From: Lacunisphaera sp.
Lineage (GTDB): Bacteria > Verrucomicrobiota > Verrucomicrobiia > Opitutales > Opitutaceae
Length of the DNA stretch: 64,000 nt
Direction: 5' to 3'
Assembly: GCA_035549955.1 (NCBI GenBank)
Contig: DASZPS010000071.1
Location: forward strand, 2,840-66,839
The translations under genes were made by a program, and so were the position numbers. How positions within the stretch are numbered: the first letter of the stretch is position 1; each line of letters opens with the position of its first letter. Below, one piece after another: positions 566-52,986 of the stretch. The notes under the pieces were generated by a model. The model saw only the letters and a list, made by a program, of their open reading frames with translations, was not told the DNA's origin and searched no databases.

Positions 566-2092
566 ATGAATATTCCACGCATTCTCACTGCTTTCGCGGT
601 GGCCGGACTCGCCTTGGCTGCCGCTTTGTTCACCGCCGTCGTCGCGAACGCTTCCGAGGGCCCGACCGATGCCAAGGGCCCGGTCATCCTCCCGGCCGAG
701 GTCCTGGCGCTGCCGGTTGAGCAGGCCATCCTCACCTCGCCGCCGAACGTTCCGCCGCCCATCGCCCGCAAGCACAGCGCGCGGGTCGTCGTGAACGTCG
801 AGGTGCGCGAGGTCGTCAAGAAGATCGCCGACGGCGCCGAGTACACCTTCTGGACGTACGGCGGCAGCGTCCCCGGCACGTTCATCCGCATCCGCGAGGG
901 CGACGTGGTGGAGTTCCACCTGAACAACCACCCCTCGTCCAAGCTTCCGCACAACATCGACCTGCACGCCGTCACCGGTCCCGGCGGTGGGGCGGCCAGC
1001 ACGTTCACCGCGCCCGGGCACAGCTCGCAGTTCACCTTCAAGGCGCTGAATCCCGGCCTGTTCGTCTATCACTGCGCCACCGCGCCCGTGCCCATGCACA
1101 TCGGCAACGGCATGTACGGCCTGATCCTGGTCGAGCCGAAGGACGGCCTGCCGCCGGTCGACAAGGAATTCTATGTCATGCAGGGCGAGTTCTACACGCA
1201 GGGCGGCTACGGGGCTCCCGGTTTGCAGTCCTTCGACATGGCGAAAAACATCGATGAGCGACCGACCTATGTGCTCTTCAACGGCGCGGTCGGGGCGCTG
1301 GTCGGCGATCGGGCGCTCCCCGTCAACGTGGGCGACCGCGTGCGCCTCTACTTCGGTGTCGGCGGGCCCAATCTCACGTCGTCCTTTCACGTCATCGGCG
1401 AGATCTTCGACAAGGTCTGGCCCGAGGGCGGCATGAAATTCGTGCAGGAAAACGTGCAGACCACCATGGTCCCGTCCGGGGGCTCGGCCATCGTCGAGTT
1501 CAAGATGGACGTGCCCGGCACCTACGTGCTGGTCGACCACTCGCTCAGCCGGGCGTTCAACAAGGGCGCGCTGGCCATGCTCAAGGCCACCGGTCCCGAG
1601 GACCGCGTGATCTATTCGGGCAAGGAAATCGACGCCGTGTATTTCGGCGCCGCGGCCGACGAGGGTTCCGCCTCGGCCAAGCGCGAGGCCGAGCTGAAGG
1701 CCAGGATCGAAGCCGAGATCAAGTCCAACCCCGCCATCGCCGGCCTCACCAAGGAGGTCCAGATGGAGCGCGGCAAGCAGGTCTTCATGGGCCTCTGCTT
1801 TGCCTGCCACCTGCCGGACGGCAAGGGCATGCCCAATGTTTTCCCGCCGCTCGCGGGTTCTGACTTCCTCATGGCCGACCGCGACCGCGCGATCCGCATC
1901 GTGCTCAAGGGTCTCATCGGGCCGGTCACCGTCAACGGCGCCACCTTCAACAGCGCCATGCCGCCGCAGGAGGCCGCCCTCTCCGAACAGCAGGTCGCCG
2001 ACGTGCTCACTTTCGTCACCAACAGCTGGGGCAACTCCGGCCCGGCCACCACGGTGGATGACGTCCGCCGCGTGAAGAACGAGACCCACTGA
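566..2092 (+). CDS. nirK: Copper-containing nitrite reductase NirK with fused C-terminal mono-haem cytochrome c domain
   Basis: 508 aa with an N-terminal signal peptide. Cupredoxin Cu-ligand regions are present ([14 protein letters not shown]; [20 protein letters not shown]). The C-terminal ~110 aa carry one CxxCH (CFACH) in a cytochrome c-like context (PPLAGSDFL...VTVNG). Confidence 0.93.
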
Positions 2093-2124
2093 GCGAATTC
2101 GATCTCCTCTGGAACCACGCCTTC

Positions 2125-3048
2125 ATGGCCGCCTCGATGAAATCCTCCGCCTTCCGCCCCTCGCGCGGGAAAGCCATTTGTAACCTATTAAGTTACAAAT
2201 TGGCCTGGGTCGCCGCGGGCTTGTGGGTGGGGATGGCGCTGGGCGCCGCCGAACGCGTTGATCGCACGGCGGGCGGGACCCCGGCGGTGGCGGAGGGAAC
2301 GCGCGCCGCGGCAGGGATGGCCGTGATTCCGGCGGGGATCTATGTGCCGCTGCAGCGCTCCCCACGGGATGCCGACCAGGTGCCCGTGGCGGCGTTCCGC
2401 CTCGACGAGGCGCCCGTCACCAACGCGGCCTACCTCGCCTTCGTGACGGCCAATCCGCAATGGCGACGCTCGGCCGTGAGCCGGCTGTTCGCCGACGCCT
2501 CCTACCTCGAGCATTGGCAGGGCGACCTGGAGCCGGGCCCGCGCGCCCCGGCCGATGCGCCCGTTGTGCGCGTGTCGTGGTTTGCCGCCCGTGCCTACGC
2601 GCGCTGGGTCGGCAAGCGCCTGCCGTCCACTGCCGAATGGGAACTCGCGGCCACCGCGGGCTACACCACGCCGCTCGGCAAGGACGAGCCCGAGTTCAAC
2701 CGCGACCTCTACGCATGGCTCGCCCGGCCTGTCCCCGAAGTGCTGCCCGCGGTCGCGTCCGCCAGGACGAACTTGCACGGGGTGCGCGGCCTGCACGGCC
2801 TGGTGTGGGAATGGGTCGACGATTTCAACACGGCCATGGTCACCGGCGAATCGCGCGCCGACAGCGGCCTCGAACGCGACCTCTTCTGCGGCGCGGGCGC
2901 GGCCGGCGCGAAGGAGACCACCGACTACGCCGCCTTCATGCGCTTTGCCCTGCGTTCGTCCCTCGCCGCCCGCAACACGACCACGTCCCTCGGGTTCCGG
3001 TGCGCCGCCGATCTTCCCGCCACCGTCATCTCTTCCTCACTGCCATGA
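2125..3048 (+). CDS. nirV: NirV-like formylglycine-generating-enzyme (SUMF1/FGE) family protein
   Basis: FGE-sulfatase-type motifs are present (VSWFAARAYARWVGKRLPSTAEWELAA; GLHGLVWEWVDD; LGFRCA). It lies directly downstream of nirK, as nirV does in denitrifiers. The start is uncertain (ATG at 2125 or 2137); the hydrophobic N-terminus KLAWVAAGLWVGMALGAA follows the palindrome at 2176-2200. Confidence 0.8.
   Translation: MAASMKSSAFRPSRGKAICNLLSYKLAWVAAGLWVGMALGAAERVDRTAGGTPAVAEGTRAAAGMAVIPAGIYVPLQRSPRDADQVPVAAFRLDEAPVTNAAYLAFVTANPQWRRSAVSRLFADASYLEHWQGDLEPGPRAPADAPVVRVSWFAARAYARWVGKRLPSTAEWELAATAGYTTPLGKDEPEFNRDLYAWLARPVPEVLPAVASARTNLHGVRGLHGLVWEWVDDFNTAMVTGESRADSGLERDLFCGAGAAGAKETTDYAAFMRFALRSSLAARNTTTSLGFRCAADLPATVISSSLP
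2176..2200. promoter_or_regulatory. AT-rich palindrome ATTTGTAAC-N7-GTTACAAAT (site 1 of 3)
   Basis: It has perfect 9-bp arms and sits in the N-terminal coding region (or 5' region) of nirV. The TGT of the left arm is a codon in the annotated frame. Confidence 0.45.
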
Positions 3049-3767
3049 AAACCACGCTTGTCCCCCCTCCGTCCTCCCAAATCGTCCCGCCCGCCCGATT
3101 CCTTTGTCATATATTATGTGACAAGAGTCGCGGCGGATTGCTGGCGCTGGCGCTGCTCGGGGCCGGCGCGGTGCGCGCCGGCGAGGCCCCCGCCTCCTGC
3201 TGCGCGTCCGAGCCCGTGAAAAAGGCCTCCTGCTGCGCGCCCGTCGAGGGCGAAAACCAAAAAACAGCAGCCGAAGCGTTCTCCAACCGCTCGCTCTACC
3301 AGGCTGACGCCGTGTTCACGACCGACGCCGGGGAGGAATTCCACCTGGGCCAGCTGCGCGGTCGGCCGGTCGTGCTGACAATGTTCTTCGCGTCCTGCGG
3401 CTATGCGTGCCCCTTGCTCGCGGCCGACATGGCCGCCATCCGCGCGCAGCTGCCGGCCGAGGTCCGCGCCCGCGCCGCGTTCGTCCTCGTGAGTTTCGAC
3501 TCGGTGCGCGACACGCCGGCCGCCCTGAAGAAGTACCGCGACGAGCGCGGCCTCGATGCCCAATGGACCCTGCTGCATGGTTCCGACGACGCGGTGCGCG
3601 AATTGGCGGCGTTGCTGGGGGTCAAGTTCCGGCGCGAGGCCGACGGCAATTTCGCCCATTCCAACCTCATCACGCTGCTTAACACCGAAGGTGAGATCAT
3701 CCACCAGCGCACCGGGCTCAAGGGCGGCCTCGCGGAGGCGGCGCAGGCGCTCGCGGCCCTGCCCTGA
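3045..3767 (+). CDS. SCO1/SenC family copper chaperone (thioredoxin fold)
   Basis: It has the CxxxC motif in a SCO context (VLTMFFASCGYACP), and a downstream His (NFAHSN) may correspond to the conserved SCO1 His. The ATG overlaps the nirV stop (ATGA at 3045-3048). The N-terminal region has two extra SCCA motifs (APASCCASEPVKKASCCAP). Confidence 0.85.
   Translation: MKTTLVPPPSSQIVPPARFLCHILCDKSRGGLLALALLGAGAVRAGEAPASCCASEPVKKASCCAPVEGENQKTAAEAFSNRSLYQADAVFTTDAGEEFHLGQLRGRPVVLTMFFASCGYACPLLAADMAAIRAQLPAEVRARAAFVLVSFDSVRDTPAALKKYRDERGLDAQWTLLHGSDDAVRELAALLGVKFRREADGNFAHSNLITLLNTEGEIIHQRTGLKGGLAEAAQALAALP
3104..3124. promoter_or_regulatory. AT-rich palindrome TTGTCAT-N7-GTGACAA (site 2 of 3)
   Basis: It lies inside the SCO1 N-terminal coding region (FLCHILCDKS) and uses the rare codons ATA and TTA. 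Its codon phase is the same as at sites 1 and 3. Confidence 0.45.
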
Positions 3768-4459: not shown

Positions 4460-4693
4460 ATGAAACCCACGAATTTCAAGACCTACGACGTCCGGCCCAT
4501 GCTTGCACGCGGAGAGGAGCCGTTCGCGGCCATTCGCGCGCGGGTGGATGCGCTGGCGCCCGGGCAGGGCGTGACCATCCTGGCGCCGTTCATGCCCGCG
4601 CCCCTGATCGAGTTGCTCAAGAGCGAGGGCTTCGCCTCGTCGATGGAACGGCGGGGCGACGGCGCCTGGGCGGTCAGTTTCTGGCGCGATTGA
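4460..4693 (+). CDS. DUF2249 domain protein
   Basis: 77 aa. The pattern D.R....EP...I......L..G....L..PF.P.PL...L...G is typical of DUF2249. It sits in an NO/hemerythrin-type gene context. Confidence 0.7.
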   Translation: MKPTNFKTYDVRPMLARGEEPFAAIRARVDALAPGQGVTILAPFMPAPLIELLKSEGFASSMERRGDGAWAVSFWRD

Positions 4694-4769
4694 CCGGTTT
4701 GTCCGCCCAACGTCGGACAACCCATGCGGAGAACTACCGGCACCTTGTTGTTACTCTTTTCCAAACTCC

Positions 4770-5132
4770 ATGCCCGCCGCCCTCCTTTCAGCCGACCAGG
4801 CTGGCGTCTGCTCCCTGCAGATGCCGACCTCGCCCGTCGCCCATGGCATCATCAGCCAGGCGGTGGTCACCGCGCCCGGCTTGCGCGTAACCCTGTTTCG
4901 CTTTGCCGCGGGCCAGGAACTTTCCGAACACACCACGCCCGCGCGCGCCCTCGTGCAGGTCCTGGCCGGGACATGTGAATTCACCCTGCCTGGCCGTGGC
5001 CAGCGCCTGGTCGCCGGTGACCTCCTGCACCTGCCGCCGGGCCTGCCGCACGCCGTGCGGGCGCTCGAAGACTTGACCCTTCTCATTACCCAAGCCACGC
5101 CGCCGCCCGCGGCCGACTCGACCCGCCCATGA
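4770..5132 (+). CDS. Cupin domain protein
   Basis: 120 aa with cupin-type motifs (GQELSEHTTPARALVQVLAGTCEF...GDLLHLPPGLPHAVRA). Its stop overlaps the next gene start (ATGA at 5129-5132). Confidence 0.7.
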   Translation: MPAALLSADQAGVCSLQMPTSPVAHGIISQAVVTAPGLRVTLFRFAAGQELSEHTTPARALVQVLAGTCEFTLPGRGQRLVAGDLLHLPPGLPHAVRALEDLTLLITQATPPPAADSTRP

Positions 5133-6620: not shown

Positions 6621-7340
6621 ATGCCGACCTCCCCGCGGCCCGCCGAACTCAAGCTCACCGGACTCGCCAGCTCGCTGCGCTGCTGCCAGTTGTTCACCGG
6701 CCTGTCGACCGAGGACCTGGCGGCCATTGCCGGATTCACGCAGGTGGCGCGGCTGGCGAAGGGCGATTATCTTTTCCACGAAGGTGCGCCCTCGCTCGGC
6801 TTCTACGTCGTCCAGACGGGGGCGGTTAACGTCCACCGGGTGAGCGCCGCGGGCAAGGAGCAGGTGATCCATGTGTTCCGGGCGGGTGAGTCATTCGCCG
6901 AGGCCGCGCTGGCCTCGCCGACGGGCTATCCGGCCAACGCCCGGGCGGTGGAACCGTCCACGATCCTGCTCATCCCGAAGGCGCCGGTGCTGGAACTCAT
7001 TGGCCGGCGGCCGGACCTCGCGCTGCGCATGCTCGGTTCCATGAGCGCGCATCTCCGGGTGCTCGTCGGGGCGCTCGATGACCTCACCCTCAAGGACGTG
7101 GAGACCCGGCTGCTCAACTGGCTGGTGAAGCACGGGCGCCATGCCCGCGGCGGGGACATCCAGTTGCCGGGCACGAAGCGGGTCCTGGCGGCGGAACTCG
7201 GCACGAGCAGCGAGACGCTGTCGCGCACGCTCGCGCGCCTGCGCGATGCGCGGCTCATCACCGTGGCGGCGCGGAGCATCAAGGTCCATGACCAGCCGGC
7301 GATCGAAGGGATGTTGCGCCGGAACCTGGGCGAGGCGTGA
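6621..7340 (+). CDS. Crp/Fnr family transcriptional regulator, Dnr/NnrR-like (no FNR Cys cluster)
   Basis: 239 aa. It has a cNMP-binding-like beta-roll (GDYLFHEGAPSLGFYVVQTGAVNV) and a C-terminal HTH with the FNR-type recognition helix ETLSRTLARL. The FNR N-terminal Cx2Cx5C cluster is absent. Confidence 0.85.
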   Translation: MPTSPRPAELKLTGLASSLRCCQLFTGLSTEDLAAIAGFTQVARLAKGDYLFHEGAPSLGFYVVQTGAVNVHRVSAAGKEQVIHVFRAGESFAEAALASPTGYPANARAVEPSTILLIPKAPVLELIGRRPDLALRMLGSMSAHLRVLVGALDDLTLKDVETRLLNWLVKHGRHARGGDIQLPGTKRVLAAELGTSSETLSRTLARLRDARLITVAARSIKVHDQPAIEGMLRRNLGEA

Positions 7341-8834: not shown

Positions 8835-9267
8835 TCAGCCAGCGGAGGTGGAGCGACCTGCTCCCCAGGGCGCTTCTTTCGCAGCGGACGTCATCAGCGC
8901 GTTGGGGAGCCGCTTCCGCCGGCTCAAGGCCCTGAGCTCGTCGAACGGGCAACGCGCTCCACCATTTGGTGCGACCGGTCCCAGTCTGAAAATGGACGTC
9001 AACTCCTGGGAAACAGCGGCGCTGTAGCCCGCATATTTCACACCCAGAGGTGTGAAATATGCGCCCTGTCGGGCCGACCTTGTCGGGGCGCGCCGCGACA
9101 AAGTCGCTCCGCCCGAAGGGCGGACGGACATTTTGCTGATTGGATCGCCCAAGACTGTGAAATGTCCGGGGTAGCCGGCCTCGTTGAGGCCGGTCCGGGG
9201 TCACCGACCCCGGCTACAACCACACCGTTTCTTCCTGACCGCAGCAAAACGTGTTTTGCGGCTTGGG
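8835..9267. repeat. Modular intergenic repeat, family M (modules C-a-b-c)
   Basis: Module a is the hairpin CATATTTCACACC-N5-GGTGTGAAATATG (9030-9062). Modules a+b recur at 49814-49964 and, inverted, at 51377-51527. Module c (9177-9267) recurs inverted at 14642-14732. Module C (8835-9020) recurs at 60860-60932 plus 61111-61165. Confidence 0.8.
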
Positions 9268-10249: not shown

Positions 10250-10482
10250 GGCGCCAGAGTAGCAGGACGCGGGTGTTCGCGTAATTGGCAGGACAGCCAT
10301 ATCCGCCTAGGGAATTCCTTTAGCTGGGTCCGTGGATAGCTGGCAGCGCCGGGTAGGGCAGCGGCGTGGCTTGACCCCACCCGGGCGCGGCCAAGACGCG
10401 CGCCGGCGTTCGACCGAACTTCCCCTCACCCAGCTGCACCCGGGCTTGCCCCGTCCACACCATCTGTTACCAGTGCAAGCCC

Positions 10483-15700: not shown

Positions 15701-15926
15701 GACGGAAACCGGTGGGCCTGGGGGTTGGTTCACCCTAGCAGGCAGCCCGGGCCCCGCCGTGCGTCCCTTGGCGAAGGTCGGGCGTAATTTGTTACCCATG
15801 AGTCACACCGCCCGGCGTCATCCCCGGGGCGCCGGAGCCGGCCTTTCCGCGACAAGAAGCGAGCCAGATTGGTCAAGTGACGCGCAGAACCGGGCGGAAG
15901 CATGCGCTAGGATTGCGGCCATCTTC

Positions 15927-16358
15927 ATGACACCCACGATCGAGATCCAATACCAGGATTTGCCGTCCTCGCCGGCGCTGACCCTGCTGATTCAGACGGA
16001 GATCGAGCGGCTGGCCCGGCATCATGCCGGACTGCGGCATTGTCGGGTGATGATTGAACGGGCCCACCACCAACCGCGGCCGGACCATCGCATTCACGTG
16101 GCCCTCGCGCTGGTGACGGACGACGGCGAGTTGATCGTCAACCACGAGCCCTCCTCGCGGGCGCCCTTGGTTGACTCCGACCTGCTCCATCCCGGCAAGG
16201 CGGAGGAGTCCCACGGTTCGCCGGGCAATGCTTACAGCACCGTCCGCGACGCCTTTGAGGCGGCGCGCCGCCAGCTGACCGAGCAGCGCCGCCGCCAGCG
16301 CGCGCACCGGCATCGCGACGACGCCGGGGACTTGCCGGCCGCCATCGCGGGAGCCTGA
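15927..16358 (+). CDS. Ribosome hibernation/HPF-YfiA (S30AE) family protein
   Basis: The pattern IEIQYQDLPSSPALTLLIQTEIERLARHH...HVALALVTDDGELIVNHE...AYSTVRDAFEAARRQL follows the short HPF/RaiA layout. Confidence 0.65.
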   Translation: MTPTIEIQYQDLPSSPALTLLIQTEIERLARHHAGLRHCRVMIERAHHQPRPDHRIHVALALVTDDGELIVNHEPSSRAPLVDSDLLHPGKAEESHGSPGNAYSTVRDAFEAARRQLTEQRRRQRAHRHRDDAGDLPAAIAGA

Positions 16359-19111: not shown

Positions 19112-21418
19112 ATGACGAACGGATCCAAGACCACCATCGAATTCAATGACGGCATCGTGCGGCAGTTCCTGCTCGCCGCCGTCCTCTGGGGCATCGTCGG
19201 CATGCTTGTCGGCGTGCTCATCGCCACCCAGCTCAACTTCTGGCAGGCCAACTTCGGCCAGTCCTGGCTGAGCTTCGGGCGCCTCCGTCCGCTCCACACC
19301 AACGCCGTCATCTTTGCCTTTGTCGGCAACATGATGTTCGCCGGCATCTATTACTCGACGCAGCGCCTGGTGAAAGCGCGTCTGGCGAGCGACTTTCTGT
19401 CGAACCTCCACTTCTGGGGCTGGCAGCTCATCATCGTGTCCGCGGCCATCACCCTCCCGCTGGGCCTCACCCGCGGCAAGGAATACGCGGAGCTCATCTG
19501 GCCCATCAACATCGCCGTCGCCTTCATCTGGGTGGTGTTCGCGGTGAACTTCTTCTGGACGCTCGCCCGCCGCAACGAGAAGTCCCTCTACGTCGCCGTC
19601 TGGTTCTACATCGCGACGATCATCACGGTCGCGATGCTCTACATCGTCAACCACCTGTCCATTCCGACTTCGCTGACGCACAGCTACCCGGTGTTCGGTG
19701 GCGTGCAGGATGGCCTGGTCCAGTGGTGGTACGGGCACAACGCCGTGGCGTTTTTCCTGACCACGCCGATTTTGGGCATCATGTACTACTTCCTGCCGAA
19801 GGCGGCGGAGCGGCCGGTCTACTCGTACCGGCTGTCGGTGGTCCACTTCTGGTCGCTGGTGTTCCTCTACATCTGGGCCGGCCCGCACCACCTGCTCAAC
19901 ACCGCGCTGCCCGCCTGGCTGCAACTCCTCGGCATGACCTTCTCGCTCATGCTGTGGGCACCGTCGTGGGGCGGCATGCTCAACGGCCTGCTCACGCTCC
20001 GCGGCGCCTGGGGCAAACTCCGGACCGACCCGGTCATCAAGTTCTTCGCCGCCGGCGTCACGTACTACGGCATGGCGACGTTTGAGGGCCCCCTGCTCTC
20101 GATCCGCTCCGTCAACGCGCTCGCGCACTACACCGACTGGATCATCGGGCACGTCCACGCCGGCGCGCTGGGGTGGAACGGCTTCATGGCGGCCGGCATG
20201 TTCTATTGGCTGGTCCCGCGCCTGTGGAACAAGCCCCTTTACTCCCAGTCGCTCGCCAACCTGCACTTCTGGATCGGGATGTTCGGCATCCTGCTTTACG
20301 TCGCGGCCATGTGGGCCTCGGGCATCGGCCAGGGCCTGATGCTCAACGCCACCGCCGAAAGCGGCACCATCCTGAAGTACCCGAACTTCCTGGAGACGGT
20401 GAATTCGATCCGGCCGCTCATGCTTCTCCGCGTGGTCGGGGGCGCGCTCTACCTGACCGGCTTCGTGCTCATGGCTTACAACATCCTCCGCAGCATCCGC
20501 GGCGCCAAGACCGTGAATGGCACGATCGAGGTCCATGTCGAGGCGCCCGCTGCGGACGAGCAGCTCGGGGCCGGGGCCACGATCTTCAACGCCCCGGTCG
20601 TGTTCTGCACGCTGGGCTTCATCGCCGCCTGCGTGTGGATGTTCGCGGATGGCTGGCTGAACCTATTCGGCCTGGTCGCGACGATCTTCTGCGTGCTGCT
20701 GGCCATCGGCCACTTCCAGTCGCGCGGCAAGGCCTGGGGCGACTGGTACGACAAGCTCCTCCTGAACGCCCTGCCGTTCACGGTCCTCACCTTCCTGTCC
20801 GTGGCCGTCGGCGGGCTCATCCAGATCATCCCGATGCTGACGATCGAGCGCCGGCTGCAGACCGAGGACCGCGTGGCGAAGGTCTACACGCCGCTCGAAC
20901 TGGCCGGCCGCGACCTCTATGTCCGCGAAGGTTGCTACACCTGCCACTCGCAGATGATCCGCACGCTGGTGCCGGACGTCATGCGCTACGGCGACTACTC
21001 GCGCCTCGGCGAATCCATCTGGGACCATCCCTACCAGTGGGGTTCGAAGCGCAACGGGCCCGACCTTGCCCGCGTCGGGGGCAAATATAACGACGCCTGG
21101 CATTTCGACCATATGCGCGACCCGCGGGCCATTTCGACGGGTTCCAACATGCCGGCCTACTACTGGCTGCACGAAAACAACACCGATTACGCGGCCCTCC
21201 CGGCGAAGATCCGCGTGCAGCGCACGCTCGGCGTCCCGTTTCCCAACTGGTCGCCGGCCGAAATCGATGCGCTCGCGAAAGTCCAGGCGAAACAAATCGC
21301 CCGGGACCTGCGCGACCAGGGCCGCTACACCGACGCCGACAAGGAGATCGTGGCCCTCACCGCTTACCTGCAGTCGCTGGGCAAGAAGTGGGAGGCGACG
21401 GGCACCGCTGCGCGGTGA
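19112..21418 (+). CDS. ccoNO: cbb3-type cytochrome c oxidase, fused subunits I and II (CcoN-CcoO)
   Basis: 768 aa. The N-terminal ~470 aa are haem-copper oxidase subunit I (HTNAVIFAFVGN, WYGHNAVAFFLT, HFWSLVFLYIWAGPHH, GHVHAGALGWNG). The C-terminal part is CcoO (CYTCHSQMIR, WGSKRNGPDLARVGGKY, HFDHMRDPR). Confidence 0.93.
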   Translation: MTNGSKTTIEFNDGIVRQFLLAAVLWGIVGMLVGVLIATQLNFWQANFGQSWLSFGRLRPLHTNAVIFAFVGNMMFAGIYYSTQRLVKARLASDFLSNLHFWGWQLIIVSAAITLPLGLTRGKEYAELIWPINIAVAFIWVVFAVNFFWTLARRNEKSLYVAVWFYIATIITVAMLYIVNHLSIPTSLTHSYPVFGGVQDGLVQWWYGHNAVAFFLTTPILGIMYYFLPKAAERPVYSYRLSVVHFWSLVFLYIWAGPHHLLNTALPAWLQLLGMTFSLMLWAPSWGGMLNGLLTLRGAWGKLRTDPVIKFFAAGVTYYGMATFEGPLLSIRSVNALAHYTDWIIGHVHAGALGWNGFMAAGMFYWLVPRLWNKPLYSQSLANLHFWIGMFGILLYVAAMWASGIGQGLMLNATAESGTILKYPNFLETVNSIRPLMLLRVVGGALYLTGFVLMAYNILRSIRGAKTVNGTIEVHVEAPAADEQLGAGATIFNAPVVFCTLGFIAACVWMFADGWLNLFGLVATIFCVLLAIGHFQSRGKAWGDWYDKLLLNALPFTVLTFLSVAVGGLIQIIPMLTIERRLQTEDRVAKVYTPLELAGRDLYVREGCYTCHSQMIRTLVPDVMRYGDYSRLGESIWDHPYQWGSKRNGPDLARVGGKYNDAWHFDHMRDPRAISTGSNMPAYYWLHENNTDYAALPAKIRVQRTLGVPFPNWSPAEIDALAKVQAKQIARDLRDQGRYTDADKEIVALTAYLQSLGKKWEATGTAAR

Positions 21419-24881: not shown

Positions 24882-25245
24882 ATGAATACCGATTTCCAGG
24901 CGAATTGGGTGGACAGGATGTGTGAGCCCGATGGTGCGAGTGCGTGGACTGCGCACCCCGCAAGCCGCTCCTGTCCACCTTTGCCTGCACGCCACGGCGT
25001 GCTTCCCGGATGAAAACCGACCTTCAGGCCAATTGGGTGGACGTGGGGCGTGAGCCCGATGGTGCGAGTGCGTGGACTGCGCACCCCGCAAGCCGCTCCC
25101 GTCCACCTTTGCCTGCACGCCCTGGCGCGGCGCCGGGATGAAAACCGACTTTCAGGCCAATTGGGTGGACGGGGGCGCGAGCCCGATGGTGCGAGTGCGT
25201 GGACTGCGCACCCCGCAAGCCGCTCCCGTCCACCTTTGCCTGCAC
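24882..25245 (+). repeat. Tandem triplication (period 128 bp) of the 5' end of the Cu-ATPase gene
   Basis: ATG-initiated units begin at 24882, 25010 and 25138. A 67-nt core (GAGCCCGATGGTGCGAGTGCGTGGACTGCGCACCCCGCAAGCCGCTCCyGTCCACCTTTGCCTGCAC) is identical apart from one substitution. Units 1 and 2 each encode a 43-codon ORF ending in an ATGA overlap with the next unit. Confidence 0.9.
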
Positions 25246-27612
25246 TGCGGCACGCCGCTGGCGACGGAGGCCGCGCGGGCGGAAGGATTTTGCTGCGCGG
25301 GCTGCAGCTACGTGCACCGGCTGGTCCACGAGCACGGGCTGGAGGGCTACTACAGGATTCGCGATGCCGTCGTCGCGCCGGTGGACCCGGCGGTGCTCCA
25401 GCCGCGAGACTATGCGTGGCTGGCGGAACTCCAGGCGGAGGCCGAGCGCCTGGCGACCGGCACGCCGGAGATGGTGCTGGAGGTGCAGGGCATTTCCTGC
25501 GCCGGTTGCGTCTGGCTGATCGAGAAGGTGTTTCACCAGCAGCCGGGAGCCCTGGTGATTGAAACCGATGCCCCGTTGGGCCGCATGCGCCTGCGCTGGC
25601 AGCGCGGGCGGTTCGACGCGCCGGCCTTCGCCCGCACGCTGCAATCCTTCAACTACCTTGCCGGGCCCCCGGGCGCGGAGCCGCCGGTGCCGGAGAGCCG
25701 GGCGCTGGTGCGGCGCATCGGGCTGTGCGCCGCGTTCGCCATGAACATCATGCTGTTCGCGTTGCCGCACTATTTCGGGATGGAGGCTACATTCTCGTAT
25801 GCATCGTTGTTCGGCACGTTGGCCATGGGGTTCGCGACCCTGAGCCTGCTGACGGGCGGCAGCTACTTCTTCGGGCGGGCGATCGCCGCGTTGCGCAGCG
25901 GGGTGTTGCATATCGACCTGCCGATCGCACTCGGCATTGCCGGCGCTTATGCGGGTTCATTCTACGGCTGGGCCACCGGGCGGGAGTTGTTTGTCTATTT
26001 CGATTTTGTCGGGGCCTTCATCCTCCTGATGCTGGTGGGCCGCTGGGCGCAGGTCGCGGCGGTGGAACGCAACCAGCGGCGCCTGCTGCGCGCACAGGCC
26101 CGGCCGCAGCGGGTCGCCGTGGCGGGGCCGGCCGGCGAATGGCGCGATGTGCCGGTCGAGAACCTGCAGCCGGGGGACGTTTTCCGGGTGAAGCCGGGCG
26201 AAGCGGTGCCCGTCGAGGCCCGGTTGGAGTCGGCGGCGGCGACCTTTGGCACGGCTTGGATCACCGGCGAGGCGGACCCGCGGGACCAGCGCGCGGGCGC
26301 GCGGGTGCCGGCCGGTTCGGTGGTGTTGTCGCGGGGCGCGGTGCAATTGCGCGCCGCGCAGGCGTGGGGGGAATCGCTCCTGGCCCGGTTGCTGCGGCCG
26401 GTGACGCGGGACGCCTACCGCCACCGGACATTGGAAAGAATCGTGGCCGGATATCTCATCGCCATCCTTGGCGTGGCGGTCGCCGCGGGCGTAGGCTGGT
26501 GGCTGCTTTCCCACGACGCGGAACGCACCTGGGCGGTGGTGACCGCGGTGCTCGTGGTTTCGTGCCCCTGCGCCGTGGGGCTCGCCTTTCCCCTGGCGGA
26601 AGAGATGGCGACCGTCGCGCTGCGCCGGCACGGCGTGTTCGTGCGCGAAGCCGACCTCTGGCCGCGCTTGGGACGAATCCGGAAACTGATCTTCGACAAG
26701 ACGGGAACGCTGACCCTCGAGACCCCCGCGCTGGCCAACCCCGGGGTGCTGGACCAACTCACCCCCCCGGCCCGCGCCGCGTTGCTGGCGTTGGTGCGGG
26801 AAAGCCCGCATCCGGTGAGCCAGAGCCTGCTGGAAAACCTGCTGACGCGGGCTGATTTCGTGAAGGAAACGGCGCCGGCAGGCCGCATCACCGAGGAGGC
26901 GGGCGGCGGCGTGCGGCTGGAGTCGGCGTCCGGTACCTGGACCCTCGGGCGGCCGGGGTGGGCCGGCGCCTCCGCGGAAACTTGTCATACATTAGGTGAC
27001 AAGTTTCCAGAGGCCGCCCACGACACCGAGTTCGCCTGCGATGGCGTGTTGCTGACGCGATTCCGCTTTGTCGATGCCGTCCGCACCGGCGCGGCGGCCG
27101 AAATTGCGCACCTGCGGGCCCGCGGTCTCGAAGTCTTTATTTTGAGCGGCGATCGTCGGGAAAAAGTGGCCGCGATGGCCCAGGCCCTGGGCCTGGCCCC
27201 CGGGCAGGCCGTGGCGGAGGCCACGCCCGCCGGGAAGGCGGCGTGGGTGCGGCGAATTGACCGGGGCGACACGTTGATGCTGGGCGACGGTGCCAATGAC
27301 AGCCTGGCGTTCGACGCCGCGCTGGCGCGAGGCACGCCCGTCATCCACCGCGGCGTGCTGGCGGGCAAGGCGGACTTCTACTATCTCGGTCGCGGCCTCG
27401 ATGGCTTGCGCCGCTTGTTTGAGGTCAACCACGCGCGCCGCCGGACCCAGCAGGCTTTGCTGGCGTTTTCGGTCGCCTACAACGCGCTGGCCGTGGGGCT
27501 GGCCGTGACCGGGCAGATGAATCCGCTGGTGGCGGCGATCCTGATGCCCGTCAGCTCCTTGTTGTCGCTGGCCATCGTGGGCGCCGGCATGCGCCGCTGG
27601 CTCGGCCGCTGA
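25138..27612 (+). CDS. ccoI: Heavy-metal (copper) translocating P1B-type ATPase, CcoI/FixI-like
   Basis: It has an N-terminal Cys-rich metal-binding domain (CLHCGTPL...FCCAGCSYVH), a CPC motif (VVSCPCAVG), the phosphorylation site DKTGTLT, and the hinge GDGANDS. The start is set at the third repeat unit (25138). Confidence 0.9.
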   Translation: MKTDFQANWVDGGASPMVRVRGLRTPQAAPVHLCLHCGTPLATEAARAEGFCCAGCSYVHRLVHEHGLEGYYRIRDAVVAPVDPAVLQPRDYAWLAELQAEAERLATGTPEMVLEVQGISCAGCVWLIEKVFHQQPGALVIETDAPLGRMRLRWQRGRFDAPAFARTLQSFNYLAGPPGAEPPVPESRALVRRIGLCAAFAMNIMLFALPHYFGMEATFSYASLFGTLAMGFATLSLLTGGSYFFGRAIAALRSGVLHIDLPIALGIAGAYAGSFYGWATGRELFVYFDFVGAFILLMLVGRWAQVAAVERNQRRLLRAQARPQRVAVAGPAGEWRDVPVENLQPGDVFRVKPGEAVPVEARLESAAATFGTAWITGEADPRDQRAGARVPAGSVVLSRGAVQLRAAQAWGESLLARLLRPVTRDAYRHRTLERIVAGYLIAILGVAVAAGVGWWLLSHDAERTWAVVTAVLVVSCPCAVGLAFPLAEEMATVALRRHGVFVREADLWPRLGRIRKLIFDKTGTLTLETPALANPGVLDQLTPPARAALLALVRESPHPVSQSLLENLLTRADFVKETAPAGRITEEAGGGVRLESASGTWTLGRPGWAGASAETCHTLGDKFPEAAHDTEFACDGVLLTRFRFVDAVRTGAAAEIAHLRARGLEVFILSGDRREKVAAMAQALGLAPGQAVAEATPAGKAAWVRRIDRGDTLMLGDGANDSLAFDAALARGTPVIHRGVLAGKADFYYLGRGLDGLRRLFEVNHARRRTQQALLAFSVAYNALAVGLAVTGQMNPLVAAILMPVSSLLSLAIVGAGMRRWLGR
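26976..27008. promoter_or_regulatory. AT-rich palindrome GGAAACTTGTCA-N9-TGACAAGTTTCC (site 3 of 3; core TTGTCAT-N7-GTGACAA)
   Basis: It has perfect 12-bp arms and lies inside the Cu-ATPase ORF (ETCHTLGDKF). It shares the core and codon phase of the nirV and SCO1 sites. Confidence 0.45.
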
Positions 27613-31611: not shown

Positions 31612-34600
31612 CTACACCAACGCATCGAACAGGATTTCCACCGGATGCAGCGCCATGCGCCCCGTGCCGTCCTTGATTTGGTGGCGGCAGCTGGTGCCCG
31701 GGGCGGCGACGAGCACGCCGGGCGGCGCCGACCGGACGGCGGGAAAGAGGACGAGCTCGCCGATTTGCTGCGAGACGTCGAAATGCTCGGCTTCGTAGCC
31801 GAAGGAACCCGCCATGCCGCAGCAGCCGCTGGGGATGATCGATACCTTGTAGCCGGCGGGCAATTCGAGCATGCGCACGGTGGGGGCGAGGGAGGCCAGC
31901 GCCTTCTGGTGACAGTGGCCGTGGAGGCGGATCGGCTGGTCGCCGGCGCGAAACGAGGCGGACGTTATCCGCCCGGTCTCGGCCTCGCGGGCGATGAACT
32001 CGTCGATCAACAGCGCATTTTTCGCGAGCGCGCGGGCGGCGGACTTGAGTTCCGCCGGCACCAGGTCGGGGTATTCGTCGCGGAAACCCAGGATGGCCGA
32101 CGGCTCGAGCCCGATGAGCGGGGCCTCGGCCGTGATGACATCTTTGAGCAGCTCGACGTTACGAATGGCCAGCGCCCGCGCCTCGCGCACGAGCCCCTTG
32201 GAAAGGTGCGCGCGGCCGCTTTCGACGTGATCCGGGATGACCACCTCGTACCCGAGCCGGCGGAGGAGTTGCACAGCCTTGATGCCAATCGCGGCATCGG
32301 TGGTGTCGGTGAATTCGTCGCAGAAGAGATGGACGCGGCGGGGGAAGGGGGTGCGGCCTTTCAATGCAAGGTCGTCGCTTGAGACGACCTTGTTCGCGAC
32401 CGCTTTGCCGTTCGAGCGTGAGGTCGTCGCAAGCGACGACCCTACATGGGCATGTTCGGCGTACCAGGCACGCAGGGTGGTCGCCGGCAGCGCCGGCAGG
32501 CTGCGGCGGCGGTCGAAGCCGGCGAAATCCTTGATCCAGCGCGAGACGTCGGGCGCGGCGACAATCCAGTTGTAGATCGCCGGGGCCAGGGTCGCCAGGC
32601 GCATCGACCGGCTGTAGCCGGCGACAATCCGCGAGCGGAGCGGCACGCCGTGGGCGTCGTGGTAGTGCTGTTGCCATTCCGCCTTGAGCCGGGCGACGTC
32701 GACGTTCGCGGGGCACTCGGATTTGCAGCCTTTGCACGAGAGGCAGAGGTCCATGACCTCGGCGATTTCGGCACTGTCCCAGGGATTGGTGACATCACGC
32801 GGGTGGGTCAGCACCTGGCGCAGCAGGTTGGCCCGGCCGCGGGTCGAGTCCGCCTCGTTGCGGGTGGCCATGTAACTTGGGCACATGGTGCCGCCCATGA
32901 GGTGGGACTTGCGGCAATCGCCGCTGCCCACGCATTTTTCCGCCGCCCGCAACACGCCCTGGTTGGCGCTGAAGTCGAAAAAGGTGGCGTAGTCGGGCGT
33001 CGGTTTGTCCGGGCCGTGGCGCAACGAGGTGTCCATCGGCGGGGTGTCCATGATCTTGCCCGGATTCAACACGCCCTGCGGATCGAACGTTTCCTTGATC
33101 CGCCGCATCAGCGCGTAGCATTCGTCGCCGACCATGAAGCGGATGAACTCGCCGCGCAGCCGGCCGTCGCCGTGCTCGCCGGAGAGCGAGCCGCGGTATT
33201 TCTTCACCAGCGCGGCGACGTCGGTGGCGATGGCCCGGAACATCCGCAGGCCGTCCGGCGACTTCAGGTTGAAGAAGGGCCGGGTGTGCAGTTCCCCGGC
33301 GCCCGCGTGGGCGTAGTAGGTGCACTCGACCCCGTACTTGCCGCGCATCAGCGCGTCGAACTCCGCGATATAGGCCGGCAGGTCCTCGACGGCCACGGCG
33401 GTGTCCTCGACGATTTCGCGCGGCTTGGCGTCACCCTCGACATTGCTGAGCACGCCCTGGCCGGTGCGGCGCAGGTCCCACACCCGGTTGCAGTCGTCGC
33501 CCCACACCACGGGAAAGGCGTAGCCCGGCTTCACCGCGTCTCGTCCCGGGCCAATGTTCGTGGTACGAACATTGCGCAGGTCTGCTTCCAGGTGGCGCAT
33601 GACGGTCTCGATCCCGGCGCGAGTGTCGCGGCGGATTTCGATCACGAGGACGGCGCCGGGGTCGCCCTGGACGAAGAAGCGGTTTTTCGCCTGCTCGAGG
33701 TTGGCCTTGGTGCATTCGAGCAGCACGCGGTCGATCAGTTCGCAGCCGTGCGGCCGGTGGCGCAGGGCAACCAGCGTGGCGTGGAGCGCGTCATTGACGC
33801 TGGCGAAATGAGCGCACATCAGCGCCCCGGGCGGGGGCAGGGGCTCGACGTTGAGCTCGAACTCGACCCCGACGAACAGCGTGCCCTCCGAACCGGCGAT
33901 GAGCCGGCAGAGGTTGAAGGGCTGCGCGGACGCCGGGTCGAAAACGCTGCATTCCATCAGTTGGTCGAGGGCGTAGCCGGTGTTGCGCCGGGTGACGGTG
34001 GGCTTGGGGTAGTGCGTGCGGATGAGCTCGCGATTGCCGGCGTCGCCGAGCAGGTCGCGGACGGTGCGGTAGATCCGGGTTTCCAGCGTGTCCGGCCCGG
34101 CGCACTTGGCCGCAAACTCCGCCGGGGTGAGGGGGCCAAAGGTCGCGGTGGAGCCGTCGCTCAGGAACCCCCGGGCCGACACCAGGTGTTCGCGGGTGGT
34201 GCCATACACGATCGAATTGGCGCCGCAGGAGTTGTTGCCAACCATGCCGCCGATCATCGCCCGCGTGGCGGTGGCGGTCTCGGGGGGAAAAAAGACGCCA
34301 TGGGGCCGGAGATGGAGGTTAAGCTCATTCCGGACAATCCCCGGTTGGACGAACACGCGTCGGGCGACCGCATCGTACCGGAGGACGCGATTCAGGTGCC
34401 GGCCGAGGTCCACGACCATCCCGGAGCCGACAACCTGGCCGGCGAGCGAGGTGCCCGCGGCGCGCGGGATGAACCCGATGCGGTGCCGGTGGGCGAAGGC
34501 GACGAGCTCGCGCACATCGGCGTCGGAGCGAGGCAGGGCCACGGCCAGCGGCATTTCCTGGTACTCGGACGCGTCGGTGGCGTAGAGCGCGCGCATAGTC

Positions 34601-34668
34601 CGCCCGGTGTGCAGCTCGCCCTGCAACCTAGCAGCGAGGGCGGGGAAGTCGGGGGAAGCGGCGCTCAT
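31612..34668 (-). CDS. ydiJ: FAD-linked oxidase fused to 4Fe-4S and CCG (GlcD+GlcF-like) domains; YdiJ-like 2-hydroxyacid dehydrogenase
   Basis: 1018 aa. It has an N-terminal FAD_binding_4 domain (IPRAAGTSLAGQ), an FAD-oxidase C domain (GEHGDGRLR), ferredoxin-type Cys motifs (CVGSGDCRKS..., CLSCKGCKSECP) and a C-terminal CCG domain (PSGCCGMAG). The size and order match E. coli YdiJ as I recall it. A REP-like insert lies at 32365-32446. Confidence 0.75.
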   Translation of the reverse strand: MSAASPDFPALAARLQGELHTGRTMRALYATDASEYQEMPLAVALPRSDADVRELVAFAHRHRIGFIPRAAGTSLAGQVVGSGMVVDLGRHLNRVLRYDAVARRVFVQPGIVRNELNLHLRPHGVFFPPETATATRAMIGGMVGNNSCGANSIVYGTTREHLVSARGFLSDGSTATFGPLTPAEFAAKCAGPDTLETRIYRTVRDLLGDAGNRELIRTHYPKPTVTRRNTGYALDQLMECSVFDPASAQPFNLCRLIAGSEGTLFVGVEFELNVEPLPPPGALMCAHFASVNDALHATLVALRHRPHGCELIDRVLLECTKANLEQAKNRFFVQGDPGAVLVIEIRRDTRAGIETVMRHLEADLRNVRTTNIGPGRDAVKPGYAFPVVWGDDCNRVWDLRRTGQGVLSNVEGDAKPREIVEDTAVAVEDLPAYIAEFDALMRGKYGVECTYYAHAGAGELHTRPFFNLKSPDGLRMFRAIATDVAALVKKYRGSLSGEHGDGRLRGEFIRFMVGDECYALMRRIKETFDPQGVLNPGKIMDTPPMDTSLRHGPDKPTPDYATFFDFSANQGVLRAAEKCVGSGDCRKSHLMGGTMCPSYMATRNEADSTRGRANLLRQVLTHPRDVTNPWDSAEIAEVMDLCLSCKGCKSECPANVDVARLKAEWQQHYHDAHGVPLRSRIVAGYSRSMRLATLAPAIYNWIVAAPDVSRWIKDFAGFDRRRSLPALPATTLRAWYAEHAHVGSSLATTSRSNGKAVANKVVSSDDLALKGRTPFPRRVHLFCDEFTDTTDAAIGIKAVQLLRRLGYEVVIPDHVESGRAHLSKGLVREARALAIRNVELLKDVITAEAPLIGLEPSAILGFRDEYPDLVPAELKSAARALAKNALLIDEFIAREAETGRITSASFRAGDQPIRLHGHCHQKALASLAPTVRMLELPAGYKVSIIPSGCCGMAGSFGYEAEHFDVSQQIGELVLFPAVRSAPPGVLVAAPGTSCRHQIKDGTGRMALHPVEILFDALV
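32365..32446. repeat. REP-like hairpin-pair element (family R variant) inside the ydiJ-like reading frame
   Basis: AAGGTCGTCGC-ttga-GACGACCTT ... GAGGTCGTCGC-aa-GCGACGACCCTACA. It is translated on the minus strand as ~VGSSLATTSRSNGKAVANKVVSSDDLALKG, in the linker before the CCG domain. Confidence 0.75.
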
Positions 34669-51376: not shown

Positions 51377-51527
51377 GCTAGCCCGGACATTTCACAGTCT
51401 TGGGCGATCCAATCAGCAAAATGTCCGTCCGCCCTCCGGGCGGAGCGACTTTGTCGCGGCGCGCCCCGACAAGGTCGGCCCGACAGGGCGCATATTTCAC
51501 ACCTCTAGGTGTGAAATATGCGGGCTA
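51377..51527. repeat. Modular intergenic repeat, family M (modules b+a, inverted relative to 9024-9177)
   Basis: It is the reverse complement of 9024-9177 with only a few mismatches by eye, including the CATATTTCACACC/GGTGTGAAATATG hairpin. Confidence 0.85.
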
Positions 51528-52649: not shown

Positions 52650-52986
52650 TGGATGGGGGAGAAACGATGGGTAGATGGGTTTATAGCCAAAATTATGCAT
52701 TAGATATGCCCAAACACCGATACTGCTGGGTAACCTCCTTTGATATGATAGTTTATGATTGTACTTTACTAGCTTACATCCTGCGGCCGGCGGGGTAAAA
52801 CGTAATGAATTCAGACGCTCGCACGTAAAAGCGTACATCGAGCCCAAGTCGCGCCCGCGCCAAAAATTCGGACGAACCCGTATGGGGAAGTGGGTATCAA
52901 CCCCACGCAAGATTCCTTGCCGGCGTGCGTTTCGGCAGTCCGTATTAGACGATGGTGTGCATGCCTGCACGCCCCGTTTTGTACGC

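Follow-up and report, generated by a model that had tools for sequence, protein, structure and literature searches.

Known palindromic repeats and the palindrome of the window

The Rickettsia palindromic elements (RPEs), reportedly described by Ogata et al. in 2000, are sequences of ∼100–150 bp found in an alphaproteobacterium that is AT-rich and lives as an obligate intracellular organism; translation turns them into additional surface segments that leave the host protein intact, and we know of no cognate protein for them. Here we describe a palindrome of 19–25 bp that occurs three times in a 64-kb stretch of DNA (the window, 66.6% GC), which is assigned through related loci to the Opitutaceae, Verrucomicrobiota, and that lies each time within a gene of copper-enzyme maturation: nirV, SCO1 and a copper ATPase gene. 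Like the RPEs, it is inserted in-frame into protein genes (here those for the ATPase, SCO1, NirV, RlmN and, as an array, an exonuclease); unlike the RPEs, it has a short unit, a free-living verrucomicrobial host (Opitutaceae) of 66% GC and a mostly intergenic distribution. With arrays of up to eight copies, it would join the RPEs as the second clear example of a palindromic repeat that is translated as part of essential proteins. The RPEs are also mentioned in passages of PMC1779305 and PMC10969869.

In its organization, the closest system is that of the REP/REPIN repeats, which in Pseudomonas and enterobacteria are accompanied by a RAYT gene (PMC3116915, PMC3337134, PMC5581495). As in that system, a short palindromic repeat is present in many copies, mainly extragenic; it forms doublets or clusters at fixed spacing, has lineage-specific variants, persists across a family, and flanks a single-copy cognate gene. 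The flanked gene, however, encodes a predicted Xre/Cro-type helix-turn-helix (HTH) protein of ∼120 residues without features of the HUH/Y1 transposase (PF01797), the enzyme that defines REP/REPIN–RAYT systems. Further differences are that the unit measures 19–25 bp and forms a near-perfect palindrome with an odd centre, that copies and arrays stand in-frame inside essential genes, and that the estimated copy number is in the tens, not the hundreds.

We modestly favour the reading that the window holds copies of a dispersed, REP/REPIN-like palindrome of the Opitutaceae, that this palindrome is the binding site of the small HTH protein, and that the three window copies are tolerated in-frame insertions. 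An element of this kind with a dedicated HTH protein has apparently not been described before, and literature searches, aimed at the core sequence and at palindromic repeats of Opitutaceae, found nothing relevant.

Three palindromes within copper-maturation genes

The pattern TTGTMAYN7RTKACAA matches the window three times, with starts at 2178, 3104 and 26982, and has no match in any of 100 dinucleotide-preserving shuffles; when two mismatches are allowed, the window yields no additional match. All three sites are 10-1-10 palindromes, for example TTGTCATATA-T-TATGTGACAA, in which 9 of 10 arm positions match. Copy 1 (ATTTGTAACCTATTAAGTTACAAAT, 2176–2200, no strand) has 12-bp arms around a 1-nt centre and flank pairing that extends to ∼2173–2206; it lies 84 bp past the nirK stop codon, within the signal-peptide n-region of NirV, and has orthologous copies in two related loci, L006 and L021. 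Copy 2 (TTGTCATATATTATGTGACAA, 3104–3124, no strand) has flank pairing to ∼3089–3135 and lies 56 bp past the nirV stop codon, within the SCO1 signal peptide. Copy 3 (GGAAACTTGTCATACATTAGGTGACAAGTTTCC, 26976–27008, no strand; core TTGTCATACATTAGGTGACAA at 26982–27002) has 13-bp paired arms composed of 12 Watson–Crick pairs and one T–G pair (+ strand), and falls in a loop within the ATPase's nucleotide-binding domain. Folded as RNA, copies 1, 2 and 3 give hairpins of −22.6, −28.2 and −32.8 kcal/mol, with z = −2.0, −4.4 and −7.1, respectively. The initial annotation of this DNA had placed the sites at 2176–2200, 3104–3124 and 26982–27002 and had them encode ICNLLSYKL, LCHILCDKS and TCHTLGDKF; direct pattern matching recovers the same sequences and coordinates, and the peptides, with TGT read as cysteine in each, are right in the open reading frames (ORFs) 2125–3048, 3045–3767 and 25072–27612.

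The host genes, identified by Pfam, are likewise all tied to copper-enzyme maturation. Copy 1 is hosted by a nirV-like FGE-sulfatase gene (2125–3048, + strand; Pfam and a public gene call), copy 2 by a SCO1/SenC gene (3045–3767, + strand; Pfam) whose ATG overlaps the nirV TGA, and copy 3 by a gene for a CcoI/FixI-type P1B ATPase (25072–27612, + strand) with CPC, DKTGT, HP and GDGAND motifs, a single 846-residue ORF with a Pfam cation-ATPase metal-binding domain. In nirV and SCO1, the site stands just ahead of the hydrophobic signal segment, as had been noted. The annotated frames are backed by the GC content of third codon positions (GC3) before and after the sites, and also by an independent gene caller in a public assembly, which places the starts of nirV and SCO1 at the same positions.

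Upstream of copy 1 lies a fusion of nirK (copper nitrite reductase) with a cytochrome c gene (566–2092, + strand; Pfam Cu-oxidase_2/3 and Cytochrom_C). The ATPase gene ends a cbb3 oxidase cluster, with a ccoNO fusion, ccoP, ccoG and a DsbD_2 gene upstream; the ccoN–ccoO fusion, at 19112–21418, joins COX1 and FixO in one 768-residue ORF.

Dispersal of the palindrome in Opitutaceae and metagenomes

The palindrome is not confined to the window. Its 19-bp core is TGTMAYNTAWTANRTKACA, and the palindromy usually covers at least 25 bp. A position-weight-matrix scan of 80 nirV-centred Opitutaceae loci together with the window (1.26 Mb) returned 14 sites scoring 28–39 bits, with the next best at 18 bits; site scores, in other words, are all-or-none. 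The core is present in 8 of the 80 fetched loci, and its contexts include the nirK/nirV junction (window, L006, L021, L009), the nirV/SCO1 junction (window, L035, L028), the gap between SCO1 and a cytochrome b gene, a position upstream of the Crp/Fnr regulator of a nir cluster, the gap between a PAS kinase gene and an AraC/PocR gene, a position upstream of thymidine phosphorylase (two to three copies), and the interior of an FAD-oxidase/Fe–S gene, where the length of the host is unchanged. In public metagenomes, scanned with the stricter 19-mer TGTMACGTAWTACGTKACA, at least 120 contigs match; the contigs among the matches listed have 53–70% GC, except for L120 (21% GC), and the relaxed pattern finds 174 sites within the contigs listed. 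Among the 120 metagenome loci listed, only L090 (nirK–nirV–SCO1) and L125 (3′ end of ccoI) resemble the window. We estimate a background density of ∼1 site cluster per 75–100 kb. No viral contig matches the motif, and a phage origin was rejected on this ground.

Where do the copies sit relative to genes? By an ORF-based gene caller, whose start choices are crude so that distances are approximate, 163 of 173 sites on the metagenome contigs listed are intergenic, in sequence that is 72% coding. GC3 in fixed windows of 150–180 bp was uninformative as a means of sorting flanks into coding and non-coding, because the signal is masked when such a window includes a stop codon or a non-coding gap. The clusters fall into 49 co-directional, 28 convergent and 11 divergent gaps, compared with 52, 19 and 16 expected by length (convergent versus divergent, p = 0.036), and 44 of the 60 sites between co-directional genes stand nearer to the stop codon of the upstream gene. 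Convergent genes thus border ∼32% of intergenic clusters, and no promoter is expected there. The neighbouring genes are diverse (63 Pfam families in 48 "site-upstream" genes, 88 in 65 "site-downstream" genes) and include Dus, Obg, FtsJ, short-chain dehydrogenases/reductases, LptF/G, FliP, a tubulin/FtsZ-family protein, transporters and glycosidases; among these 113 site-adjacent genes (∼150 Pfam families) there is no copper or respiration theme.

The copies also come and go. The closest nirV relatives, L001–L004 (79–82% identity), are without the window's sites and more distant relatives carry them, a pattern that implies frequent gain and loss. In one intergenic slot, L019 has three copies at 4618–4746, versus a different palindromic repeat in the 95%-identical L016, which suggests competition among several palindrome families for the same slots. 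The L016 repeat, at ∼4700–4780, is rich in GGACCCATGGGTCC-type palindromes.

Copies inside genes as in-frame insertions

Compared with orthologues, the window copies resemble in-frame insertions of roughly 36–80 bp. The window ATPase has 12 extra residues (SAETCHTLGDKF, 26971–27006) relative to the orthologue in L125, and motif-encoded peptides such as TCNLLGYK, VCHLLGDK, TCHIIDDK and VCNVIRYK occur in the same CcoI loop in ∼20 of 120 aligned orthologues (∼17%), two of which carry three copies. In L211 (three copies), L212 and L213, the palindrome is confirmed in the AT-rich DNA that encodes this loop, with a different core variant from locus to locus. For SCO1, ∼45 orthologues run from MKT(T/K) straight into the hydrophobic segment, and the window protein is ∼27 residues longer there (3057–3137); L035 has a near-identical version of copy 2 as a 57-bp insertion relative to L031, with no convincing target-site duplication at the L035/L031 insertion. 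Similarly, site-free nirV orthologues begin ∼10 residues ahead of the membrane segment. Other enzymes are affected as well: RlmN has two copies between conserved motifs in three contigs (...CHVLRDK...CHVIRDK...), and a DnaQ-like exonuclease ORF in L086 has eight in-frame copies with periods of 57, 57, 54, 54, 69, 57 and 57 bp, all multiples of three, so that the frame stays open. For annotation of Verrucomicrobiota, these observations carry a warning: AT-rich islands of rare codons in signal peptides or enzyme loops may be repeat insertions, which shift apparent start codons and fragment assemblies.

Two further observations concern the loci with CcoI-loop copies. In L212, a second palindrome (TTGTAACGTATTACGTTACAA, 10255–10275) lies in the same ATPase gene, 133 bp upstream of the loop copy. 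Additionally, the CcoI ATPase appears as two ORFs in the public gene calls for L211 (1969–4720), L212 (8572–11014) and L213 (4905–7385), and the point of the split differs; frameshifts, assembly errors near the repeats or the behaviour of the gene caller could be the cause.

The initial annotation had also drawn attention to the codon phase that the three window copies share. Read as TGT-MAY-NTA-WTA-NRT-KAC, the palindrome cannot contain a stop codon in either orientation; the phase xTG-TMA-...-TKA always yields TAA or TGA if the arms are complementary; and site 1 shuts the remaining phase with TAA, as site 3 does with TAG. Only one frame was thus available to two of the three sites; the phase common to all three carries no information and is an artefact that arises because stop codons are avoided. 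In-ORF copies elsewhere make use of the second open phase, giving LVTYYATN in L020 and HVTYYVTN in L211. A companion claim, that it is the nucleic acid and not the peptide that is selected or maintained, finds support, in that the same 19–25-bp palindrome is kept in non-coding DNA across well over a hundred contigs. A function of the encoded C-H-x-L-x-D-K peptide in copper proteins, whether in metal binding or in targeting, which the Cys–His peptides of the three window copper-handling proteins and their up to threefold occurrence in the CcoI loop might bring to mind, can be set aside as highly improbable, given that more than 90% of copies are non-coding, that RlmN and the exonuclease carry the same peptides and other proteins the second frame (VTYYVT), that the peptides vary exactly as the degeneracy of the DNA predicts, and that AT-rich rare codons are kept rather than swapped for GC-rich synonyms.

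A small HTH protein bracketed by the palindrome

Some site pairs, 400–560 bp apart, enclose a small gene. By tblastn, this gene is bracketed by sites in eight loci that had been retrieved through the motif; in all six loci fetched by protein homology alone, the palindrome stands 14–100 bp from the gene ends on both sides (the downstream copy in L205 is detected only with the relaxed pattern), and 6-of-6 bracketing cannot be chance at the background density of ∼1 cluster per 75–100 kb. Overall, the gene has sites within ∼100 bp in 14 of 14 loci, on both sides in most, with one to three copies per side. In most loci a site ends 15–50 bp upstream of the start codon (∼100 bp in L210); loci with such an upstream site are L083, L107, L164, L170, L201, L203, L205, L208, L209 and L210. 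Additionally, the palindrome variant tracks the lineage of the protein, with ATGTCAC for L141 and L165, TTAGTCATCTAATAAATGACAA for L208 and TTGTCATCTATTAGATGACAA for L209.

The encoded protein of ∼120 residues has 337 family matches, all "hypothetical", and those that are named by organism are from Opitutaceae/Opitutales. The family has no Pfam or NCBIfam assignment: a Pfam scan (E ≤ 1) returns only weak matches to YdaS, HTH_3 and Sigma70_r4, and profile matches to Cro proteins are weak as well. In an AlphaFold model (pLDDT 81.5), an N-terminal helix of 32 residues is followed by a basic arm, whose conserved sequence is RRGATLRPGxxTPLWNEL, and a four-helix HTH. The Foldseek neighbours are P22 c2, 434 Cro, SinR, restriction–modification controller proteins and HigA/HipB, none of which reaches E ≤ 0.001, and the C-terminal domain is predicted from the model to adopt an Xre/Cro-type HTH fold.

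Xre/Cro/cI-type regulators include the 434 and P22 repressors, SinR, restriction–modification controller proteins, DdrO with its radiation–desiccation response motif (RDRM) and the nucleoid protein EspR. The system described here is like theirs in the predicted C-terminal fold, in having a palindrome upstream of its own start codon, and in the pairing of strong and weaker sites at fixed phase. The protein, together with the site at its own promoter, resembles an Xre/Cro autoregulatory pair. The system is unlike those regulators in that sites also lie downstream of the gene and are dispersed genome-wide without a regulon theme, a third of them convergent and some of them in-frame arrays in ORFs.

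The genomic neighbourhood of the HTH gene varies. Directly upstream of it is a DUF420 gene in two divergent genomes (L208, 9311–10360; L209, 465–1425); the L208 pair lies inside a SCO1/CtaA/CtaB/cupredoxin/COX1–4 cluster, and in L209 only DUF420 is identifiable. In other genomes, the neighbours are dus, TonB, sigma-70 and GT2 genes, and many contigs with the HTH gene are shorter than 2 kb. Between COX4 and CtaG in the aa3 oxidase cluster of L208 there is also a 172-residue gene (15755–16273) with a weak Y1_Tnp (RAYT-like) Pfam match; as a partner of the palindrome it was rejected, as no copies of the palindrome flank it. No transposase is linked to the palindrome in the fetched loci.

If the linkage of gene and palindrome holds, then dispersed repeats are maintained alongside a protein that simply binds DNA, in place of a transposase, which raises mechanistic questions; how are the palindromes copied and homogenized, and how are they kept for so long in a genome of 66% GC? 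More tentatively, we propose that persistent palindromes and a single-copy Xre/Cro gene, without a transposase, constitute an undescribed repeat–protein system of the Opitutaceae, either REPIN–RAYT-like in organization with other biochemistry or a new architectural or insulator system.

A protein-binding site or a hairpin

In the mechanism that we envisage, the double-stranded palindrome would most likely be bound by an Opitutaceae-specific HTH protein, probably as a dimer and in cooperative pairs at ∼45 or ∼55 bp. Copies would be gained as short insertions, mainly intergenic, and in-gene copies would survive only where in-frame, stop-free reading is tolerated, as in signal-peptide regions and surface loops. 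In the window, bound protein or an mRNA hairpin 56–84 bp past the nirK and nirV stop codons might damp read-through into the accessory genes. The spacing of sites speaks to the first of these steps: neighbouring sites are 43–47 bp (13 cases) or 54–57 bp (16 cases) apart and never 48–53 bp, the two modes differ by one helical turn (∼10 bp), and the spacers between paired sites are mutually unrelated, a combination that fits a protein on duplex DNA. The pairs often consist of a consensus site and a weaker CACTTA...TAAGTG site, and the symmetry of the sites runs through the centre. A doublet as one larger hairpin was considered and rejected, as spacer self-complementarity is low in most cases (0.08–0.59).

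Several observations weigh against this mechanism or the reading behind it. The link between protein and site is suggested by genomic association, and the HTH gene does not lie in the 64-kb window. Judging by gene orientation, about a third of intergenic clusters are convergent, so most copies cannot be classical promoter operators. The spacing is suggestive and not decisive evidence of protein binding, as REPIN doublets also hold a fixed spacing (PMC3116915). The arms covary beyond the needs of a dimer: hybrid TGTCAC...GTTACA sites make up 6% compared with ∼46% expected. Complementarity also enters the non-conserved flanks (88%, 73%, 54% and 45% at offsets 10–13), falling to a 27% background at offset 21, and many sites are perfect palindromes of 33–35 nt. 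Such covariation and flank complementarity, unexpected of a plain dimer operator, point to hairpin formation or to copying by descent or template switching; the template-switch "correction" of quasi-palindromes in replication, or spread by copying, could produce the extra symmetry without any hairpin function. Finally, the copies in the CcoI loop and at the 5′ ends of nirV and SCO1 recur across many Opitutaceae lineages, and this recurrence could reflect a local function that we have dismissed.

The strongest competitor, which we regard as distinctly less probable than a protein-binding site, is that the palindrome is a REP/REPIN-like selfish or domesticated element that works or spreads as a single-stranded DNA or RNA hairpin, with the HTH protein a mere co-evolved accessory; at the RNA level, it would stabilize the upstream mRNA or attenuate read-through across nirK, nirV and SCO1. 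This explanation accommodates the strong, extended hairpins at the window sites, the arm covariation, the flank complementarity and the perfect palindromes of up to 35 nt. It fits the bias toward gene 3′ ends in co-directional and convergent gaps, the presence of a different palindrome family in the slot shared by L016 and L019, and the combination of doublets or arrays with a repeat-flanked single-copy gene, as in REPIN–RAYT (PMC3116915, PMC3337134). Symmetry through the centre, however, leaves a loop of 1–3 nt and is needless for an RNA, and folding energy has no consistent strand preference. A scan of 1900–3400 found no intrinsic terminator, with a GC-rich hairpin and a T-run behind it, at either palindrome; the flanks of the sites show no T-run. 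Across the window, no Rfam family reaches its gathering score, and 2100–3250 yields only sub-threshold noise. The flanked gene's lack of HUH/Y1 features means that no mobilizing enzyme has been identified for such an element, and two spacing modes ∼10 bp apart with unrelated spacers are better suited to duplex DNA. The initial annotation had considered an RNA hairpin that coordinates copper genes; the strong folding at all three sites supports its structural half, and the coordination of copper genes finds no support.

Two arrays look superficially like CRISPRs. That of L138 (300–503) has five copies at a 46–47-bp period between a gene for a small membrane protein and, convergent with it, the 3′ end of an SMC-like gene, and that of L086 is the exonuclease array. 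A CRISPR identity was rejected for both, in that repeat variants differ, the periods are 46–47 or 54–69 bp, some spacers are related, and the L086 array lies in an ORF.

Less probable roles in chromosome organization and copper regulation

Might tens of high-affinity palindromes organize or mark the chromosome, independently of nearby genes, in the manner of matS/MatP, NBS/Noc, SBS/SlmA or EspR-type nucleoid proteins? The all-or-none quality of the sites, their density of one cluster per 75–100 kb with neighbours of no functional theme, their presence in every intergenic class and occasionally in genes, and the arrays of five to eight sites would all suit such a role, as might the long N-terminal helix of the modelled protein, which could favour higher-order assembly. 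We nevertheless consider this explanation unlikely, in that the strong avoidance of coding DNA and the gain by insertion are more like the dynamics of a repeat element, and in the systems known to work in this way the protein's own gene is not bracketed by sites.

Less probable still is a copper-responsive (or nitric oxide- or oxygen-responsive) operator or internal promoter for nirV, SCO1 and the copper ATPase gene, which is close to what the initial annotation proposed. The location of all three window copies within copper-maturation genes makes the idea attractive, and it gains from the recurrence at nirV and SCO1 5′ ends in L006, L009, L021, L028, L035 and L090 and in ∼17% of CcoI loops, from the copies in the SCO1–cytochrome b gap and upstream of the nir-cluster Crp/Fnr gene, and from the HTH gene beside DUF420 in L208 (cta/cox cluster) and L209. 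Most copies, however, adjoin unrelated housekeeping genes; the 113 neighbours show no enrichment, about a third of clusters lie between convergent genes, and copies stand inside the genes for RlmN, the DnaQ-like exonuclease and the FAD oxidase, all of which argues against a copper, nir or cco regulon. A shared operator should also be present in the orthologues of close relatives, and L001–L004 are without sites, though other orthologues have them. The cox cluster of L208 has just four sites, all of them around the HTH gene. As to an internal promoter, there is no sigma-70-like match at 1900–3400. Of the proposed operator, then, what remains plausible is a protein-binding palindrome, with the Xre/Cro-type HTH gene as the site-flanked candidate; its connection to copper does not.

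The suggested likeness to the enterobacterial CusR/CopR copper box is not supported either. A TTGTCAT-like half-site would be shared, in a different arrangement and at a different spacing; the window's palindromes are found in coding or 3′-proximal DNA and not at copper promoters, copper genes are not enriched among the neighbours, and the motif-linked protein is not an OmpR-family response regulator. Crp/Fnr boxes consist of two 5-bp half-sites in TGA-N6-TCA geometry, with a core of 14–16 bp. The Crp/Fnr regulator encoded in the window (6621–7340) was rejected as the binder, because the palindrome, as T(C/A)A-N9-T(G/T)A, is 3 bp too wide and is dispersed far from nir clusters.

On present evidence, the three copies lie in copper-related genes by coincidence, and copper handling is not what the element is for; an attractive but unsupported regulatory hypothesis is thereby removed. 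The recurrence in CcoI, nirV and SCO1 may reflect function, insertion spots that are tolerant, or plain inheritance; we leave a small probability for a respiratory connection, through these recurring copies and the HTH gene beside DUF420.

Other palindromes and AT-rich sequence in the window

The window contains palindromes of other kinds. A second family, with copies at 9030–9063 and 51489–51522, has the form CGCATATTTCACACC-(2–4 nt)-GGTGTGAAATATGCG with 15–16-bp arms; both copies are intergenic, and there is no copy among the 213 fetched loci. Within an FAD-oxidase/Fe–S gene of the window (31612–34626) lies the palindrome CAATGTTCGTGGTACGAACATTG (33552–33574), with TGTTC...GAACA arms. The largest AT-rich island of the window, at 52675–52816, has three stretches of ≤30% GC within 140 bp and is unrelated to the motif.

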